IMG/VR virus record: IMGVR_UViG_2675903289_000010
Origin: a virus
Taxonomy: Duplodnaviria; Heunggongvirae; Uroviricota; Caudoviricetes
Length of the DNA stretch: 5,471 nucleotides
Direction: 5' to 3' (one strand)
The notes beneath the pieces are model-generated. The model saw nothing but the letters and a program-made list of their open reading frames with translations, was not told where the DNA came from and did not search any database. How positions within the stretch are numbered: the stretch's first letter is position 1; the number at the start of each line of letters is the position of its first letter. Positions 1-5,471 of the stretch are shown one piece after another. The position numbers and the translations under genes are program-made.

Positions 1-647
1 GCCGTGTTCGGGTAGCACTGTTTCACATCGATGATTTCGGTGTACGACGACCAGAGCGTTTTGTTCTGCAGCTGGTCTGTGGTGCTGTCCGGCGTCATTC
101 TGCGCATCCGGATATTAAACGGGCGCGGCGGCAGGTTATCCACCACCACCGAGGCCAGATACTGCGAGGTGGTTTTGCCCTTAATGGTGATGTCTTTTTC
201 CGTCACCCAGCCACCGTTACGCTGTATCTGAACCAGCAGGCGGACTTCCGACGGATTCCGGTCACCCTTTGAGGTGGTTTCCACCAGTGCCTGCACACCG
301 AAGGTCAGGCGCAGACGGTCGATGTTTGCCGACGTGATGGTCCGGGTGATCGGCGTGTCATATTTCACTTCCGTACCCAGCACCGTCTCGGAGCCGGAGG
401 ATTCAAAACCCTCCGGCGGTGTCTGCTCCTGCTCACCTGCACGGAACACCACCGTAACACCGGAAAGGTTTGTCTTCCCCTCGCTGTCCAGGACCGGCGT
501 ACCGTTCAGCAGCACGCTTTTTAATCCATCCACCGGACCGTCAACCGGCCCTTCGCTGATGGCATCGATCACACTCAGCAGCTGCGTGGACTTCAGGTTG
601 TCCTTCGCTTCGCGCGGGGTATGCCCCTTACTGCTGCCTTTACCCAT
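1..647 (-). CDS. J: Host specificity / central tail fibre protein J, N-terminal ~215 codons; gene continues past window start (3' end missing)
   Basis: Minus-strand ATG at complement 645-647 with GGAG about 8 nt upstream (complement 656-659). Reverse-complement translation begins MGKGSSKGHTPREAKDNLKSTQLLSVIDAISEGPVDGPVDGLKSVLLNGTPVLD, matching the N-terminus of lambda gpJ as I recall it; frame stays open to position 1. Plus-strand ORFs 31..231 and 274..663 are antisense shadows. Confidence 0.92.
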   Translation of the reverse strand, partial: MGKGSSKGHTPREAKDNLKSTQLLSVIDAISEGPVDGPVDGLKSVLLNGTPVLDSEGKTNLSGVTVVFRAGEQEQTPPEGFESSGSETVLGTEVKYDTPITRTITSANIDRLRLTFGVQALVETTSKGDRNPSEVRLLVQIQRNGGWVTEKDITIKGKTTSQYLASVVVDNLPPRPFNIRMRRMTPDSTTDQLQNKTLWSSYTEIIDVKQCYPNT

Positions 648-669
648 TCCTCACGCTCCATAAACGACA

Positions 670-689
670 AAACCGCCCGCAGGCGGTTT
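670..689 (-). terminator. I-J intergenic stem-loop (8-bp stem 670-677 / 682-689, 4-nt loop 678-681) followed on the minus strand by a T-rich tract; possible intrinsic terminator or attenuator
   Basis: Inverted repeat AAACCGCC / GGCGGTTT read directly from the sequence; minus-strand downstream sequence is TGTCGTTTATGG leading into the J ribosome-binding site. Function is inferred only. Confidence 0.3.
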
Positions 690-707
690 CACATAAAACA
701 TTTTGCA

Positions 708-1410
708 TCAGCGACCAATCACCACAACCTGACCACCGTCCCCTTCGTCTGCCGTGCTGATCTCCTGAGATACCACACGTGACCCCACGCGCATTTCACC
801 ATACAGAACAGGCATAACATTGCCCTGGGCAACCATGTTATCCAGTGACGAGAAATACGTGTTCTGCTTACCGTTATCCGTTGTCTGTGTNNNNNNNNNN
901 NNNNNNNNNNNNNNNNNNNNNNNNNNNNNNNNNNNNNNNNNNNNNNNNNNNNCGGGGAGTTCTGGCTTTCGGTGCCAGCATCTGTGCAACACCGCCAAGC
1001 GTCATACTGGCACCGAGAGAAAACAGCAGATTACTCGCCATAATTCCTACCCCCGGCATCCATATAGCAACCGCCATAACAGCCGCCCCCAGCACCGCCT
1101 GAAACACACCGCCACTTTTAGCTCCCACCAGACGCGGTACTATGTGGATCACTGCACCATTTGCCAGCGGCTCATTAAGACGGGCAGACAATTCGGTTTC
1201 ACCTGCATCACGCCCGGCAATGCGCACCTGATACCAGCCGTCACTCAGTTTCTGACGAAACGCCGGGAGCTGTGTGGCCAGTGCCCGGATGGCTTCAGCC
1301 CCCGTTTTCACACGAAGGTCGATGCGGCGACCAAATCGTTGTAAATCCCCGTAAAGGCAGATGCGCGCCATGCCCGGTGACGCCAGAGGGAGTGTGTGCG
1401 TCGCTGCCAT
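708..1410 (-). CDS. I: Tail tip assembly protein I (N-terminal ubiquitin-like domain ending in a Gly-Gly motif); interrupted by an N run at 891-952
   Basis: ATG at complement 1408-1410, stop TGA at complement 708-710. Track ORFs 874..1410 and 708..998 together read MAATHTLPLASPGMARICLYGDLQRF...VIHIVPRLVGAKSGGVFQ...MLAPKARTP[N]TQTTDNGKQNTYFSSLDNMVAQGNVMPVLYGEMRVGSRVVSQEISTADEGDGGQVVVIGR, colinear with lambda gpI. The apparent frame change across the N run is an artefact of gap length. Confidence 0.88.
891..952. other. Run of 62 N inside gene I (assembly gap or masked bases)
   Basis: Literal N characters. Flanks read ...KARTPR and TQTTDNG..., which are only a few codons apart in lambda gpI as I recall it, so the true missing length is probably much shorter than 62 nt. 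Confidence 0.95.
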
Positions 1411-1767
1411 TTGTCGGTGTACCTCTCTCGTTTGCTCAGTTGTTCAGGAATATGGTGCAGCAGCCCGCCGTCACCGCAGTAAATGGCGGCATGATTCGGC
1501 ACCGATGAACCAAAACAGCACAGCAGCACATCGCCCGGCTGTGCCTCTGTCAGTGCGACACGGTAAAAACCCGTCACCTCCATATTGTCAAGATAGAGAT
1601 TCTGACCGTTACGCCACCAGTCATCCCCGCGATGAAAATCCGGCATCTCAATCCCTGCCAGATGATAAGCATCCCGGAACAGCGTGTAACAGTCCGTCAC
1701 CCCGTGCTCAAAGCGCCGCCCGGTGAGATGCGGCACACAGCGGAACTTGTGAATCGCCCCCCGGCAG
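1286..1767. repeat. Direct repeat copy A (~482 bp), about 93% identical to 1769-2250; spans K C-terminal region plus I 5' end
   Basis: Manual alignment of 1287-1767 with 1770-2250: both start cggatggcttc and end cggaacttgtgaatcgccccccggcag; roughly 35 mismatches including one divergent ~60-nt patch (1545-1605 vs 2027-2087). Confidence 0.85.
1308..1767 (-). pseudogene. K: K C-terminal fragment (NlpC/P60 domain portion), second divergent copy, truncated at the N at 1768; overlaps the I start by 103 nt as in lambda
   Basis: Track ORF 1308..1736 ends ...GVTDCYTLFRDAYHLAGIEMPDFHRGDDWW...NHAAIYCGDGGLLHHIPEQLSKRERYTDKWQRRTHSLWRHRAWRASAFTGIYNDLVAASTFV. Similarity continues to 1767, then the sequence jumps to I-like sequence after the N. 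Confidence 0.7.
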
Positions 1768-1768
1768 N
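1768..1768. other. Single N at the junction of the two ~482-bp repeat copies
   Basis: Literal N; left flank corresponds to K (equivalent to 2221-2247), right flank to I 5' region (equivalent to 1287 onward). Confidence 0.95.
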
Positions 1769-1894
1769 CCGGATGGCTTCGGCACCCGTTTTCACACGAA
1801 GGTCGATGCGGCGGCCAAATCGTTGCAAATCCCCGTAAAGGCAGATGCGTGCCATGCCCGGTGACGCCAGAGGGAGTGTGTGCGTCGCTGCCAT
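1769..1894 (-). pseudogene. I: I N-terminal fragment (first 42 codons) fused at N1768 to K-derived sequence in a different frame
   Basis: ATG at complement 1892-1894; track ORF 1697..1894 reads MAATHTLPLASPGMARICLYGDLQRFGRRIDLRVKTGAEAIR then X then out-of-frame K sequence. Confidence 0.7.
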
Positions 1895-2250
1895 TTGTCG
1901 GTATACCTCTCTCGTTTGCTCAGTTGTTCAGGAATATGGTGCAGCAGCTCGCCGTCACCACAGTAAATGGCGGCATGATTCGGCACCGATGAACCAAAAC
2001 AGCACAGCAGCACATCGCCCGGCTGCGCCGCTGACAACGGCACCTGATACAGCCCTGTGGCCTCCAGATTATCCAGATAGAGATTCTGACCGTGACGCCA
2101 CCAGTCATCCTCACGATGAAAATCCGGCATCTCAATCCCCGCCAGATGGTAAGCATCCCGGAACAGCGTGTAACAGTCCGTCACCCCGTGCTCAAAGCGC
2201 CGCCCGGTAAGATGTGGCACACAGCGGAACTTGTGAATCGCCCCCCGGCA
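1769..2250. repeat. Direct repeat copy B (~482 bp), partner of 1286-1767
   Basis: See copy A; differences are scattered and include synonymous changes, consistent with diverged alleles. Confidence 0.85.
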
Positions 2251-2535
2251 GACCAGCCACCACGGCAAATCACTCTGCACCTGCAGCCGCCGGTCAGCCT
2301 CACTCAGCCAGGGCAGACCACCGGGATGACTGTGGACCAGCGCCACAATCTCACCCTGCATTTGTGCCCGCAGCCAGTCCTCCGGAGCCATCCGGAACCG
2401 TTCCTCCGGCTCACCGGAGATATTCTCGCTGGGAAGATACCTGTCTCCCTCCGGCGTTCTTACCACGAAGCCACACGACTCCGCTGGCGCACATCGCCGG
2501 GCGTGCGCCAGAATCGCTGATTCTGTCTCTGTCAT
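1792..2535 (-). CDS. K: Tail tip assembly protein K, 247-codon ORF: N-terminal JAB/MPN (JAMM metalloprotease-like) domain plus C-terminal NlpC/P60 cysteine peptidase domain
   Basis: ATG at complement 2533-2535, 5 nt after the L stop (TAA ATCCC ATG); stop at complement 1792-1794. JAMM signature HSHPGGLPWLSEAD (H-x-H-x7-S-x2-D) and NlpC/P60-like Cys/His residues (VTDCYTLF, NHAAIY, LLHHIP) are visible in the translation. An internal in-frame ATG (complement 2389-2391, MAPEDW) would give a 199-aa product. Confidence 0.88.
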   Translation of the reverse strand: MTETESAILAHARRCAPAESCGFVVRTPEGDRYLPSENISGEPEERFRMAPEDWLRAQMQGEIVALVHSHPGGLPWLSEADRRLQVQSDLPWWLVCRGAIHKFRCVPHLTGRRFEHGVTDCYTLFRDAYHLAGIEMPDFHREDDWWRHGQNLYLDNLEATGLYQVPLSAAQPGDVLLCCFGSSVPNHAAIYCGDGELLHHIPEQLSKRERYTDKWQRRTHSLWRHRAWHASAFTGICNDLAAASTFV

Positions 2536-2540
2536 GGGAT

Positions 2541-3239
2541 TTACTGCGAAAGTTTGTTAATGGAAAGGAAGCCGCCAAAGTTGCCGACGTTATTGCGAAA
2601 CTTACAGCCACTCAGGCATTTGCTGCATTTATCCTTCGTGATGTCGGACGTTGGCTGGTCATATTCATCCGCGACCGCCGGACCGTGATAACCGCACTCA
2701 TCGCCGCGATAGGTCCAGGTGCAGGTGTTGGCCAGCATGATACGTCCCGGAAAAACAGCGCCATCTGTTTCCGTCGGCGTGGACAGTACAAAAGAGGCAC
2801 TCACCGCGCTCAGTTCGCTGCACTGCTCAATGCGCCAGCGGCTGATCACCTCCTGCTCCGGATCGGCGTCACTGTTTCCGTTGACGAAGTTCACCGCATC
2901 CAGAAAACGGGCGTAAACCTTACGCCGGACCACCGTTCCGCCGACCAGACTCTGTAGATCTTCCGCCATCCCGGTGACCATACCGTACAGGTTAGAAACC
3001 ATCAGCGTGGGGCGCGTACTGGTGCCTTTGCCATTCAGTTCAAAACCACTCCCCTGAATGGGATACGGCTGATACTGTCGCCCCTGCCAGGTGACCGGCT
3101 CACCTTTTTCGTTCTGCTCATTACAGAAAAAATAACGTTCTCCACCGACCTCTGTCAGATCGATTTCCCAGAGCACCACGCTGGCCGACTGCTCCGCACG
3201 GGTGCATTCATTCAGTGTTTCCTGCCGGATATCCTGCAT
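2541..3239 (-). CDS. L: Tail tip assembly protein L (232 aa) with C-terminal cysteine cluster (Fe-S binding in the gpL family)
   Basis: ATG at complement 3237-3239, stop TAA at complement 2541-2543. Translation MQDIRQETLNECTRAEQSASVVLWEIDLTEVGGERYFFCNEQNEKGEPVTWQGRQYQPYPIQGSGFELNGK...ANTCTWTYRGDECGYHGPAVADEYDQPTSDITKDKCSKCLSGCKFRNNVGNFGGFLSINKLSQ matches lambda gpL. Plus-strand ORF 2214..2957 is an antisense shadow. Confidence 0.92.
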   Translation of the reverse strand: MQDIRQETLNECTRAEQSASVVLWEIDLTEVGGERYFFCNEQNEKGEPVTWQGRQYQPYPIQGSGFELNGKGTSTRPTLMVSNLYGMVTGMAEDLQSLVGGTVVRRKVYARFLDAVNFVNGNSDADPEQEVISRWRIEQCSELSAVSASFVLSTPTETDGAVFPGRIMLANTCTWTYRGDECGYHGPAVADEYDQPTSDITKDKCSKCLSGCKFRNNVGNFGGFLSINKLSQ

Positions 3240-3307
3240 CAGTTCACCACCTGTTCAAACTCTGCGCTGAACTCAACACGCAGCATACTGACCCGCGACG
3301 ACCATTT
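3239..3307 (-). pseudogene. M: M 3'-terminal fragment (last ~22 codons), lambda-like, truncated by the N run at 3308-3315; stop overlaps the L start (TGATG)
   Basis: Reverse complement of 3239-3307 translates WSSRVSMLRVEFSAEFEQVVN then stop, the lambda gpM C-terminus as I recall it; no upstream body of the gene is present. Confidence 0.75.
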
Positions 3308-3315
3308 NNNNNNNN
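3308..3315. other. Run of 8 N at a rearrangement junction (M 3' fragment | K N-terminal fragment)
   Basis: Literal N characters; flanks belong to non-adjacent parts of the canonical gene order. Confidence 0.95.
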
Positions 3316-3512
3316 AGCGCCACAATCTCACCCTGCATTTGTGCCCGCAGCCAGTCCTCCGGAGCCATCCGGAACCGTTCCTCCGGCTCACCGGAGATAT
3401 TCTCGCTGGGAAGATACCTGTCTCCCTCCGGCGTTCTTACCACGAAGCCACACGACTCCGCTGGCGCACATCGCCGGGCGTGCGCCAGAATCGCTGATTC
3501 TGTCTGTGTCAT
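3316..3512 (-). pseudogene. K: K N-terminal fragment (first ~65 codons), near-identical to 2339-2535, truncated by the N run
   Basis: ATG at complement 3510-3512, 4 nt after the L copy-2 stop. Translation MTQTESAILAHARRCAPAESCGFVVRTPEGDRYLPSENISGEPEERFRMAPEDWLRAQMQGEIVA; identical to the full K copy across 3316-3506 (equivalent to 2339-2529), with a single substitution at 3508 (equivalent to 2530, E3Q) and a 1-nt indel in the L-K spacer. Confidence 0.75.
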
Positions 3513-3516
3513 GGAT

Positions 3517-4215
3517 TTACTGAGAAAGTTTATTGATGGAAAGGAAACCGCCGAAATTACCGGTATTGTTGCGCAACTCACACCCGCGCATACACTTGCT
3601 GCATTTGTCCTTCCGGATATCCGTCGTTGGTTTGTCGAACTCGTCAGCCACTGCCCTGCCCGTGTAACCACACTCATCAGAACGGTAAGTCCACATACAG
3701 GTATTCGCCAGCATGATACGCCCCGGGAAAACCGCGCCATCCGTCTCCGTTGGTGTGGCCAGCACAAAAGAGGCACTGACCGCGCTCAGTTCGCTGCACT
3801 GCTCGATGCGCCAGCGGCTGATCACCTCCTGTTCCGGATCGGCGTCGCTGTTTCCGTTGACGAAGTTCACCGCATCCAGAAAACGGGCGTAAACCTTACG
3901 CCGGACCACCGTTCCGCCGACCAGACTCTGTAGATCTTCCGCCATCCCGGTGACCATACCGTACAGGTTAGAAACCATCAGCGTGGGGCGCGTACTGGTG
4001 CCTTTGCCATTCAGTTCAAAACCACTCCCCTGAATGGGATACGGCTGATACTGTCGCCCCTGCCAGGTGACCGGCTCACCTTTTTCGTTCTGCTCATTAC
4101 AGAAAAAATAACGTTCACCACCGACCTCTGTCAGATCGATTTCCCAGAGCACCACGCTGGCCGACTGCTCCGCACGGGTGCATTCATTCAGTGTTTCCTG
4201 CCGGATATCCTGCAT
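3517..4215 (-). CDS. L: Tail tip assembly protein L, second full-length copy with divergent C-terminal ~80 residues (cysteines conserved)
   Basis: ATG at complement 4213-4215, stop TAA at complement 3517-3519. Identical to copy 1 over the N-terminal ~150 residues; the C-terminus differs (LATPTETDGAVFPGRIMLANTCMWTYRSDECGYTGRAVADEFDKPTTDIRKDKCSKCMRGCELRNNTGNFGGFLSINKLSQ) but keeps all five Cys positions. Confidence 0.85.
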   Translation of the reverse strand: MQDIRQETLNECTRAEQSASVVLWEIDLTEVGGERYFFCNEQNEKGEPVTWQGRQYQPYPIQGSGFELNGKGTSTRPTLMVSNLYGMVTGMAEDLQSLVGGTVVRRKVYARFLDAVNFVNGNSDADPEQEVISRWRIEQCSELSAVSASFVLATPTETDGAVFPGRIMLANTCMWTYRSDECGYTGRAVADEFDKPTTDIRKDKCSKCMRGCELRNNTGNFGGFLSINKLSQ

Positions 4216-4259
4216 CAGTTCACCACCTGTTCAAACTCTGCGCTGAACTCAACACGCAG
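4215..4259 (-). pseudogene. M: M 3'-terminal fragment (second copy, ~14 codons), truncated by the N run at 4260-4270
   Basis: 4216-4259 is identical to 3240-3283 (agttcaccacctgttcaaactctgcgctgaactcaacacgcag). Confidence 0.7.
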
Positions 4260-4270
4260 NNNNNNNNNNN
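4260..4270. other. Run of 11 N at a rearrangement junction (M 3' fragment | L internal sequence)
   Basis: Literal N characters. Confidence 0.95.
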
Positions 4271-4779
4271 GCCAGCATGATACGCCCCGGGAAAACCGCG
4301 CCATCCGTCTCCGTTGGTGTGGCCAGCACAAAAGAGGCACTGACCGCGCTCAGTTCGCTGCACTGCTCGATGCGCCAGCGGCTGATCACCTCCTGTTCCG
4401 GATCGGCGTCGCTGTTTCCGTTGACGAAGTTCACCGCATCCAGAAAACGGGCGTAAACCTTACGCCTGACCACCGTTCCGCCGACCAGACTCTGCAGGTC
4501 TTCCGCCATCCCGGTGACCATTCCGTGCAGGTTAGAAACCGTCAGTGTCGGACGGGCAGCACTGCCCTTGCCGTTCAGTTCAAATCCCGTCCCCTGAATG
4601 GGGTATGCCTGATACTGCCGCCCCTGCCAGGTAACCGGCTCACCTTTTTCGTTCTGCTCATTACAGAAAAAATAACGTTCACCACCGACCTCTGTCAGAT
4701 CGATTTCCCAGAGCACCACCTGGGCTGACTGAGTGAGGCGTGTCGTCTCATGATGTGTTTCCTGTGGAATATCCTGCAT
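4271..4779 (-). pseudogene. L: L N-terminal fragment (~169 codons), third copy with divergent N-terminal residues; 3' end lost at the N run
   Basis: ATG at complement 4777-4779. Translation MQDIPQETHHETTRLTQSAQVVLWEIDLTEVGGERYFFCNEQNEKGEPVTWQGRQYQAYPIQGTGFELNGKGSAARPTLTVSNLHGMVTGMAEDLQSL...; 4271-4470 is near-identical to 3708-3907, while 4530-4779 is divergent. Confidence 0.75.
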
Positions 4780-4788
4780 CAGAGCCTC
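4780..4788 (-). promoter_or_regulatory. Ribosome-binding site for L copy 3 (minus-strand TAGGAGGCTCTGATG; AGGAGG overlapping the M stop)
   Basis: Reverse complement of 4777-4791 is TAG GAGGCTCTG ATG; the AGGAGG core sits about 6 nt upstream of the ATG. Confidence 0.55.
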
Positions 4789-5118
4789 CTATGCCACGAC
4801 CTGTTCAAAATCTGCCGTTATGGTTACCCACAACGCCCCCACGCTTGCCGACCATTTACGACAAACCACCCTGATCGGCTTCCAGTCATAAGGTGGCGTC
4901 CACTGAAATGCGCGGACGCCACCGTGCCGTTCCAGAAAGGCTTTTAAAAATGGGTGTTCACCTTTACGAACACGTATCTTCACGCTGTAAGTCGACAACT
5001 GGTTATTCAGTCCCGCCGCACGACGCTGTTCATAACCATCGCCCAGCTTCACTGTCACCACTTTCGGCTCTGATACCACATTCATATCCGGGCGCACTTT
5101 CCAGTGAAACGTCTCCAT
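4789..5118 (-). CDS. M: Minor tail protein M (109 aa), divergent from lambda gpM
   Basis: ATG at complement 5116-5118 overlapping the H stop (TAATG); stop TAG at complement 4789-4791. Translation METFHWKVRPDMNVVSEPKVVTVKLGDGYEQRRAAGLNNQLSTYSVKIRVRKGEHPFLKAFLERHGGVRAFQWTPPYDWKPIRVVCRKWSASVGALWVTITADFEQVVA is colinear with lambda gpM (same length, conserved GDGY, WTPPY, KWS, FEQVV). Confidence 0.85.
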   Translation of the reverse strand: METFHWKVRPDMNVVSEPKVVTVKLGDGYEQRRAAGLNNQLSTYSVKIRVRKGEHPFLKAFLERHGGVRAFQWTPPYDWKPIRVVCRKWSASVGALWVTITADFEQVVA

Positions 5119-5471
5119 TACCGGTATGCTCCACTTAACCGGCCACCATCACGGGCCTGCTGTTGCATAAAGTCCGCGGCCGCTTTTTTCCCGAGGTCAT
5201 AAACCACCTTCAGGGCAGCCGGACCTATCTGCCCGTTCGTGCCATCGTTATTGATCTCAATGTTGTACTGCGGGGCAAACATCACCATGCCTGAACCACC
5301 AGTATCCGCCACACCCCCCAGCTTACCATCAGCACCGCGACGCAGTGGCAGAATGGCTTCAGGTCCCGCTTCCCCCATCACACCCGCGCCTTTTGCAAAA
5401 GCAAAAAACGTCGGACGGTTAACCACCGTGCCACTGTAGCGACTCAAATCAGCAGACTGAGGTAGCCTGAG
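5118..5471 (-). CDS. H: Tail tape measure protein H, C-terminal ~117 codons; 5' end lies beyond window end
   Basis: Minus-strand frame is open from 5471 down to stop TAA at complement 5118-5120. Translation ...MVMFAPQYNIEINNDGTNGQIGPAALKVVYDLGKKAAADFMQQQARDGGRLSGAYR resembles the lambda gpH C-terminus (INNDGTNGQIGPAALK). The track's M at 5447 is a TTG, not the real start. Confidence 0.85.
   Translation of the reverse strand, partial: LRLPQSADLSRYSGTVVNRPTFFAFAKGAGVMGEAGPEAILPLRRGADGKLGGVADTGGSGMVMFAPQYNIEINNDGTNGQIGPAALKVVYDLGKKAAADFMQQQARDGGRLSGAYR

Follow-up and report, generated by a model that had tools for sequence, protein, structure and literature searches.

A threefold lambda-type tail-tip module in a draft prophage record is very probably a false duplication made during assembly

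The viral record IMGVR_UViG_2675903289_000010, 5,471 nt long and analysed here at its full length as "the window," appears to carry genes of a lambda-type tail tip three times over, which raises the question of whether a prophage has duplicated part of its tail operon or whether the reiteration was made during genome assembly. On the minus strand the order is H, M and L (codons 1-169), an N run, the M tail, L and K (codons 1-65), a second N run, the M tail, L, K and I (codons 1-42), a third N run, and finally the K C-terminus, I and J (Table 1). The Pfam families found were PF05939, PF05100, PF14464 with PF00877, PF06805, and PF24801, corresponding to Phage_min_tail (M), Phage_tail_L, Prok-JAB with NLPC_P60 (K), Lambda_tail_I, and FNIII-A_GpJ, and these lambda-type tail-tip families stand in canonical order inside each contig as well as in the unit left when the reiteration is removed. 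Gene I starts about 100 nt before K ends.

Table 1. Contigs, genes and N runs of the window, listed in the order of the minus strand.
Feature	Position	Strand	Content or remark
Contig S5	4271-5471	-	H tape-measure C-terminus, M, L codons 1-169; one block, reference 5185-6363
H tape-measure protein, C-terminus	5118-5471	-	in S5
M, full	4789-5118	-	in S5; Pfam
L, partial, 169 codons	4271-4779	-	in S5; length from coordinates 4779 to 4271
11-N run	4260-4270	.	gene order steps back 553 nt; junction pattern not in IMG/VR
Contig S4	3316-4259	-	M tail, full L, K codons 1-65
M, last ~14 codons	about 4216-4259	-	in S4
L, full	3517-4215	-	in S4; Pfam
K, partial, 65 codons	3316-3511	-	in S4; length from coordinates 3511 to 3316
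8-N run	3308-3315	.	gene order steps back 969 nt; junction pattern not in IMG/VR
Contig S3	1769-3307	-	M tail, full L, full K, I codons 1-42
M tail	about 3240-3307	-	in S3
L, full	2541-3239	-	in S3; Pfam
K, full, JAB and NlpC/P60 domains	1792-2535	-	in S3; Pfam
I, partial, 42 codons	1769-1894	-	in S3; length from coordinates 1894 to 1769
Single N	1768	.	gene order steps back 483 nt; junction pattern not in IMG/VR
Contig S2	953-1767	-	K C-terminal part, I first 152 codons; reference 3892-4706
K, C-terminal part	1308-1767	-	in S2; from about codon 96; Pfam fragment 1308-1736
I, first 152 codons	953-1410	-	in S2; Pfam
62-N run inside gene I	891-952	.	colinear, no jump, oversized gap
Contig S1	1-890	-	I C-terminal part, I-J spacer, J start; reference 3001-3890
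I, C-terminal part	708-890	-	in S1
I-J spacer, 60 nt	between I and J	-	in S1
J, codons 1-215	3-647	-	in S1; Pfam (J N-terminus)

Reverse-complemented, the window reproduces WGS record CXCF01000249.1 of the draft assembly GCA_001251775.1 over its full 5,471 bp, Ns included. It is a scaffold of five N-separated contigs, S1 to S5, of 890, 815, 1539, 944, and 1201 nt, and a whole small WGS record built from contigs of 815-1,539 nt has the draft character expected where false duplication occurs. In the public gene calls on this record L already appears twice at full length, together with several fragments. What look like truncated copies of L, K, I, and M are contig ends, not genes. A reading of the Ns as masks set by the data provider was rejected, since the public record, fetched independently, agrees with the window down to its Ns, and since masking would leave the flanks colinear.

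Aligned to a single-unit H-M-L-K-I-J reference, each N-free segment formed one colinear block, and the gene order stepped back at 1768 (483 nt), 3308-3315 (969 nt), and 4260-4270 (553 nt) and nowhere else. The original prediction of a reiterated tail-tip module that jumps back by roughly 0.5-1 kb at each of these N runs was thus confirmed by Pfam and by the single-unit mapping, and the lengths it gave for the partial L, K, and I genes follow from the coordinates. That each of the three jumps falls at an N run, so that gaps lie between the copies, is a mark of false duplication, and the contiguous sequence that a real duplication would carry across its junctions was not found, as no sequenced base spans any of the three. 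A search of IMG/VR for the three junction patterns returned none, as opposed to the normal K adjacency, which takes the place of the junction at 1768 in at least 120 IMG/VR contigs.

The fourth N run, at 891-952, lies just outside the interval 1286-4779 to which the original prediction referred. Its 62 Ns replace about 1 nt, S1 ending at reference position 3890 and S2 beginning at 3892, and the same gap of about 1 nt was found on a second reference (L001), where the S1 and S2 edges fall at 6649 and 6651. The run divides gene I into two reading frames, and with a 1-nt gap I is open through 213 aa.

The copies were expected to be different alleles, 93-95% identical and with localised divergent patches. 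Their allelic nature and the patches were borne out, and the measured identities were lower: 93.0% for S2/S3 and S3/S4, 91.5% for S4/S5, and 88.7% for S3/S5. Identity varies strongly along the copies: blocks of up to 269 nt show no difference at all, next to a patch that is about 19% divergent. S4 is an alternative allele of the S3 interval 2339-3283, identical to it over 190 nt at one end and over 412 nt (1 mismatch) at the other, with 65 differences in the 343-nt core (about 19%) between these near-identical flanks. S5 shares its first 196 nt (4271-4466) without a single difference with S4 (3707-3902), and the N-terminal region of L is represented in the window by at least three alleles (S3, S4, and S5). 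With identities of 88.7-93.0% and a core that diverges where its flanks are identical, the copies show the allele-specific differences that accompany false duplication, and such mosaic copies fit alternative graph paths or recombinant alleles, not duplicates diverging in place.

Finished E. coli and phage genomes assign the copies to one shared interval, again as in a false duplication. The whole window collapses as five pieces onto 3,363-3,375 bp in every complete E. coli record listed; in phage genomes the corresponding span is about 3,380 bp, for example 12210-15590 of mEp460. For S3, 4,352 complete E. coli records gave a single colinear alignment that took in 100% of the contig, with a best identity of 97.6%, and S4 matched complete genomes as one block at 99.0%. 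We are confident that the triple reiteration is a false duplication from draft-genome assembly, in which short contigs stemming from several near-identical prophages were strung together over N gaps; it is almost certainly ordinary, not a biological feature, with no biological mechanism involved. A chimeric scaffold of paralogous prophage alleles had been proposed from the start, and the small draft scaffold, the unsequenced junctions, the collapse onto about 3.36 kb in thousands of finished genomes, best matches in different prophages, and the recurrence of single-N reiteration in other contigs derived from drafts, and in no others, all uphold it. The proposal had spoken of "collapsed or mis-joined repeats," of which only the second term applies, because alternative parallel alleles were laid end to end.

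For contigs that adjoin in the window, the best relatives within one finished genome lie in different prophages. In CFSAN029787, S4 matched at 99.0% at 0.37 Mb versus 97.2% at 4.15 Mb, whereas S2 matched at 98.9% at 4.15 Mb versus 95.8% at 0.37 Mb. FDAARGOS_944 gave a similar picture, with S2 at 99.3% in the prophage at 4.38 Mb versus 89.2% at 5.04 Mb, and S5 at 97.6% at 5.04 Mb versus 95.9% at 4.38 Mb. By analogy with these two genomes, the alleles probably come from co-resident prophages of one strain. A complete genome holding all segments at about 100% in separate prophages was not found in the collection searched, where the best matches were 97.5-99.3%, and since no segment has a 100% match in complete genomes the true haplotypes are not reconstructable. 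A 49-mer from S3 was matched in genome contigs of Shigella flexneri, E. coli, Escherichia sp., and a MAG labelled Bacillota, and in those four genomes no segment matched above 97%.

The same kind of artefact could also arise if the alleles came from a mixed or contaminated culture, in which two strains each carried a related prophage. Paralogues of one genome and the prophages of two co-sequenced strains would read alike in sequence alone, and the presence of three or more alleles for the N-terminal region of L is in keeping with a mixture, but complete E. coli genomes hold a median of 3 and a maximum of 14 copies of the module, which makes a second strain unnecessary, and single finished genomes contain prophages that best match different segments. 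We regard a mixed culture as very unlikely.

An authentic locus, that is, a prophage whose tail-tip module has undergone nested partial tandem duplication and now includes three L genes besides M, K, I, and L in truncated form, the N runs being assembler failures beside genuine junctions, appears extremely improbable. The pieces do run consistently head to tail on one strand, the copies are non-identical, as expected of old duplicates, and with Ns for junction bases the bare sequence is compatible with such a locus. Against this, all three junctions consist of Ns, and where copies of 88-93% identity really meet, the sequence would hold unique k-mers and normally assemble through. Identical flanks of 190-412 nt beside a core of about 19% divergence are a poor fit to divergence in place, and the record in its entirety comes to 5.5 kb, scaffolded from contigs shorter than 1.6 kb. 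Nor did the reiterated arrangement turn up at the best-matching places of 4,159 complete E. coli records and of 99 phage genomes, both sets consisting of records where a single place accounts for at least 80% of the query, so that independent gap-free genomes did not supply the same arrangement, as they should for a real duplication.

IMG/VR contigs tell against an authentic locus in the same way, as the junction patterns are absent there and the arrangement was not seen in 117 other contigs listed. The module is reiterated in 3 of the 120 contigs listed (L067, L080, and L103), and in these a single N abuts every jump; only 1 of the 117 that do not reiterate contains an N, and it is located elsewhere. 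By our own arithmetic the hypergeometric probability of this association between reiteration and N is 4/280,840, or about 1.4e-5.

One path through the pieces of the false duplication yields a unit of 3,385 nt in which M (109 aa), L (232 aa), K (247 aa), and I (213 aa) are all intact and the N-terminus of J is present. The excess of the window over this single unit is 2,086 nt (5471 minus 3385), so the figure of about 2.3 kb originally given for the difference was too high. The reconstruction shows that one copy per gene is sufficient and is not put forward as a true haplotype, because S4 and S2 best match different prophages of CFSAN029787.

The probable course of events for the false duplication begins with a host, by similarity an Escherichia coli/Shigella-type strain, that would have carried several lambdoid prophages whose H-M-L-K-I-J tail-tip modules share long identical stretches broken by divergent patches. 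The multiple module copies in E. coli genomes are a substrate for such assembly tangles. In short-read assembly this tangle would come apart as five short contigs, each carrying one allele of a portion of the module. A paired-end scaffolder would then place these contigs, which are parallel and overlap, one after another on the strength of read pairs from the stretches they share, with Ns written wherever an overlap could not be merged. Extension of the edges during gap filling may have added identical flanks and shrunk gaps to 1-11 N. The pattern of N lengths, together with papers on these tools, suggests that SSPACE and GapFiller may have been used. Both are greedy and capable of false joins, which are recorded as Ns (PMC5320598), and GapFiller lengthens both gap edges base by base, the gaps that remain open lying mainly in repeats (PMC3446322).

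The value of the record is as a caution about data quality only. Its surplus L genes are spurious, as are its truncated reading frames of K, I, L, and M, and they would inflate gene-family counts, "accessory" clusters in pangenomes, and duplication calls. Since the same module is reiterated at single Ns in other IMG/VR contigs, suspicion is due towards lambdoid tail genes from scaffolded short-read drafts whenever an N run separates repeated copies.

The window resembles the "heterotype" false duplications at scaffold gaps described by Ko et al. 2022 (PMC9516828), in which two or more slightly different versions of one interval stand in tandem with assembly gaps between them, and it shares with those cases the allele-specific differences and the spurious partial and duplicated genes. 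It differs in that prophage paralogues of a haploid bacterium here play the part of the "haplotypes," which in those cases are the two parental ones of a diploid. The module itself corresponds to the lambda tail tip of gpH, gpM, gpL, gpK, gpI, and gpJ, with the same Pfam families and the order H-M-L-K-I-J within every contig, and its closest sequenced phages are vB_EcoS-569R4, PhiR47_1, mEp460, cdtI, and Ayreon, the window being 92-94% identical in nucleotide sequence to mEp460-like phages. Once the reiteration is removed there is no biological difference from a lambda-type module, which measures 3,385 nt here and about 3,380 nt in phages.

The ORF listing and Pfam placed every gene of the window on the minus strand and bore out the originally predicted gene layout, with equal codon counts. 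When aligned to a finished single-copy unit, that of FDAARGOS_943 (locus L006), each of the five N-delimited segments, S1-S5, formed one colinear block, and from the positions of these blocks it follows that the sequence steps back at N runs only, by 483 nt at the one at 1768, by 969 nt at the one at 3308-3315 and by 553 nt at the one at 4260-4270; there is no backward jump within the real sequence of the window. The triple reiteration of the tail-tip module that had been proposed, with its jumps at N runs, is thus confirmed. Every new adjacency in the window consists of Ns, and gaps of 1-11 N are written where the true relation is an overlap of 0.5-1 kb. The N run inside gene I is colinear, with no backward jump, but its 62 Ns stand for about 1 nt in two independent references, a gap too large by about 61 nt that splits gene I between two reading frames.

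N runs, segments and genes of the window, with segment positions on the FDAARGOS_943 unit
Feature	Window position	Strand	Detail
N run	891-952		62 N
N run	1768		1 N
N run	3308-3315		8 N
N run	4260-4270		11 N
Segment S1	1-890		reference 3001-3890
Segment S2	953-1767		reference 3892-4706
Segment S3	1769-3307		reference 4224-5713, plus divergent M tail
Segment S4	3316-4259		reference 4794-5713, plus divergent M tail
Segment S5	4271-5471		reference 5185-6363
H tape-measure protein, C-terminus	5118-5471	minus	
M	4789-5118	minus	Pfam Phage_min_tail
L, cut by N run after 169 codons	4271-4779	minus	
L complete, two genes	3517-4215 and 2541-3239	minus	Pfam Phage_tail_L
K start, 65 codons	3316-3511	minus	
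K complete	1792-2535	minus	JAB + NlpC/P60
I start, 42 codons	1769-1894	minus	
K C-terminal fragment	1308-1767	minus	
I	953-1410, continuing at 708-890	minus	
J, first 215 codons	3-647	minus	

I and K overlap by 103 nt in both copies (1308-1410 and 1792-1894), with I beginning in another reading frame within the 3' end of K, an overlap also present in lambda; RefSeq annotations of relatives give I a shorter start (180 aa). The 60-nt I-J spacer holds a perfect 8-bp inverted repeat, AAACCGCC-CGCA-GGCGGTTT, at 670-689, followed on the coding strand by TGTCGTTT, and to the eye the combination looks like a terminator; the repeat was not among the matches of the consensus scan.

Identity between copies was 93.0% for S2/S3 and for S3/S4, 91.5% for S4/S5 and 88.7% for S3/S5, a range of 88.7-93.0% that falls somewhat below the 93-95% originally predicted. 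The differences are unevenly distributed along S3, S4 and S5. The first 190 nt of S4 are identical to S3 and its last 412 nt match S3 with one mismatch, while between these flanks there are 65 differences in 343 nt (S3 2529-2871, chiefly the C-terminal third of L); similarly, S5 shares its first 196 nt without a difference with a region inside S4, beyond which the two diverge. Contig ends fall at the borders between shared and divergent blocks. Lambdoid prophages are mosaics with identical blocks in common, and identical flanks around a divergent core have the look of alternative paths through a repeat graph; in tandem duplicates about 19% diverged in one patch, identity on both sides is not expected. 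The two full L alleles diverge most in their C-terminal third, by about 19% of nucleotides (2541-2730 versus 3517-3706), and in both the Cys cluster near the C-terminus (CxWTY...ECGY...CSKCxxGC) has its five cysteines in full.

One copy of each gene suffices. A path that runs from S5 into S4 (3706->3316), crosses to S2 over an 87-nt bridge of S3 (2338->2252) and reaches S1 after one unknown base, offered as an illustration and with no claim to be a true haplotype, gives a unit of 3,385 nt, the size seen in finished genomes; in it M (109 aa), L (232), K (247) and I (213) are intact and the N-terminus of J is present. The window exceeds this unit by 2,086 nt, comprising 2,005 nt of repeated sequence and 81 surplus Ns. 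When 5,426 complete E. coli genomes were compared, the five pieces stacked on one interval of 3,363-3,375 bp in all E. coli records among the matches listed, and in 4,159 E. coli records a single place covered 80% or more of the query. Sequenced phages gave a corresponding interval of about 3,380 bp (e.g., mEp460 12210-15590), with at least 80% of the query covered by one place in 99 phage records. Taken alone, S3, S4 and S5 each aligned colinearly to thousands of complete genomes, in one block spanning 97-100% of the segment. S5 also had 97.0% identity over 1,190 nt to a 19.9-kb contig (L002, JAEWTL010000010.1) of the MAG 'Bacillota bacterium OH_SDB_141'; this contig has an E. coli-type lambdoid tail module, probably as a result of mis-binning or contamination.

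E. coli genomes with the module carry a median of three copies and a maximum of 14, so what an assembly tangle needs is normally present. In CFSAN029787, a finished genome, S4 is closest to a prophage at 0.37 Mb (99.0%, versus 97.2% at 4.15 Mb) and S2 to the one at 4.15 Mb (98.9%, versus 95.8% at 0.37 Mb); in FDAARGOS_944, also finished, S2 is closest at 4.38 Mb (99.3%, versus 89.2% at 5.04 Mb) and S5 at 5.04 Mb (97.6%, versus 95.9% at 4.38 Mb). Scaffold neighbours thus resemble different co-resident prophages. Alleles from a mixed culture, which would still make the reiteration an artefact, are superfluous given this usual multiplicity, and we regard that source as highly unlikely.

Searched as exact patterns with N positions free, the three window junctions had 0 matches among 2.9 million IMG/VR contigs, where the normal K adjacency occurs in at least 120. 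The module is reiterated in 3/120 of those contigs, L067, L080 and L103, which come from other draft genomes and have the same tail module, and in all three a single N adjoins every backward jump (5497 in L067; 3113 in L080; 8833 and 9992 in L103). An N is present in 1 of the 117 non-reiterated contigs, outside the module; by our own arithmetic, the chance that all three reiterated contigs would be among the four bearing Ns is 4/280,840, or about 1.4e-5. Reiteration of this module thus belongs to scaffolded drafts and not to phages. A real nested tandem duplication of the tail-tip module, in which the bases at the junctions happen to be hidden by Ns, is still less probable than a mixed culture, as it requires three unassemblable junctions despite unique flanks, identical flanks round a core with about 19% difference, and an arrangement of which gap-free genomes have given no example.

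The window is the exact reverse complement, Ns included, of CXCF01000249.1 (5,471 bp; draft assembly GCA_001251775.1), the one place found by an exact look-up of the K protein; the literature search found no paper naming the accession. Because the match takes in all of CXCF01000249.1, the window amounts to one complete small scaffold, built of contigs of 815-1,539 nt, and multi-copy prophage sequence in short-read assemblies typically ends as such small scaffolds. A paired-end scaffolder would have tied parallel allele contigs together via read pairs in shared blocks and then placed them in series, and a gap filler may have lengthened the contig edges with paralogous reads down to 1-11 Ns, presumably never meeting an overlap to merge. 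SSPACE and GapFiller are described as greedy and able to make false joins, and joins appear as Ns (PMC5320598); GapFiller grows a gap's two edges one base at a time, and those gaps that it does not close are mostly in repeats (PMC3446322). This literature fits the proposed mechanism.

The copies are separated by gaps, map to a single reference interval and differ in an allele-specific way, and the record is a draft scaffold; the reiteration is thus a case of false duplication at scaffold gaps, a class already known. The chimeric assembly proposed in the original prediction is supported, and the reiteration is not a real feature; it is of use only as a warning of spurious gene duplicates in such records. 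Biologically, the window holds an ordinary lambda-type tail-tip module, to which mEp460-like phages have 92-94% nucleotide identity.
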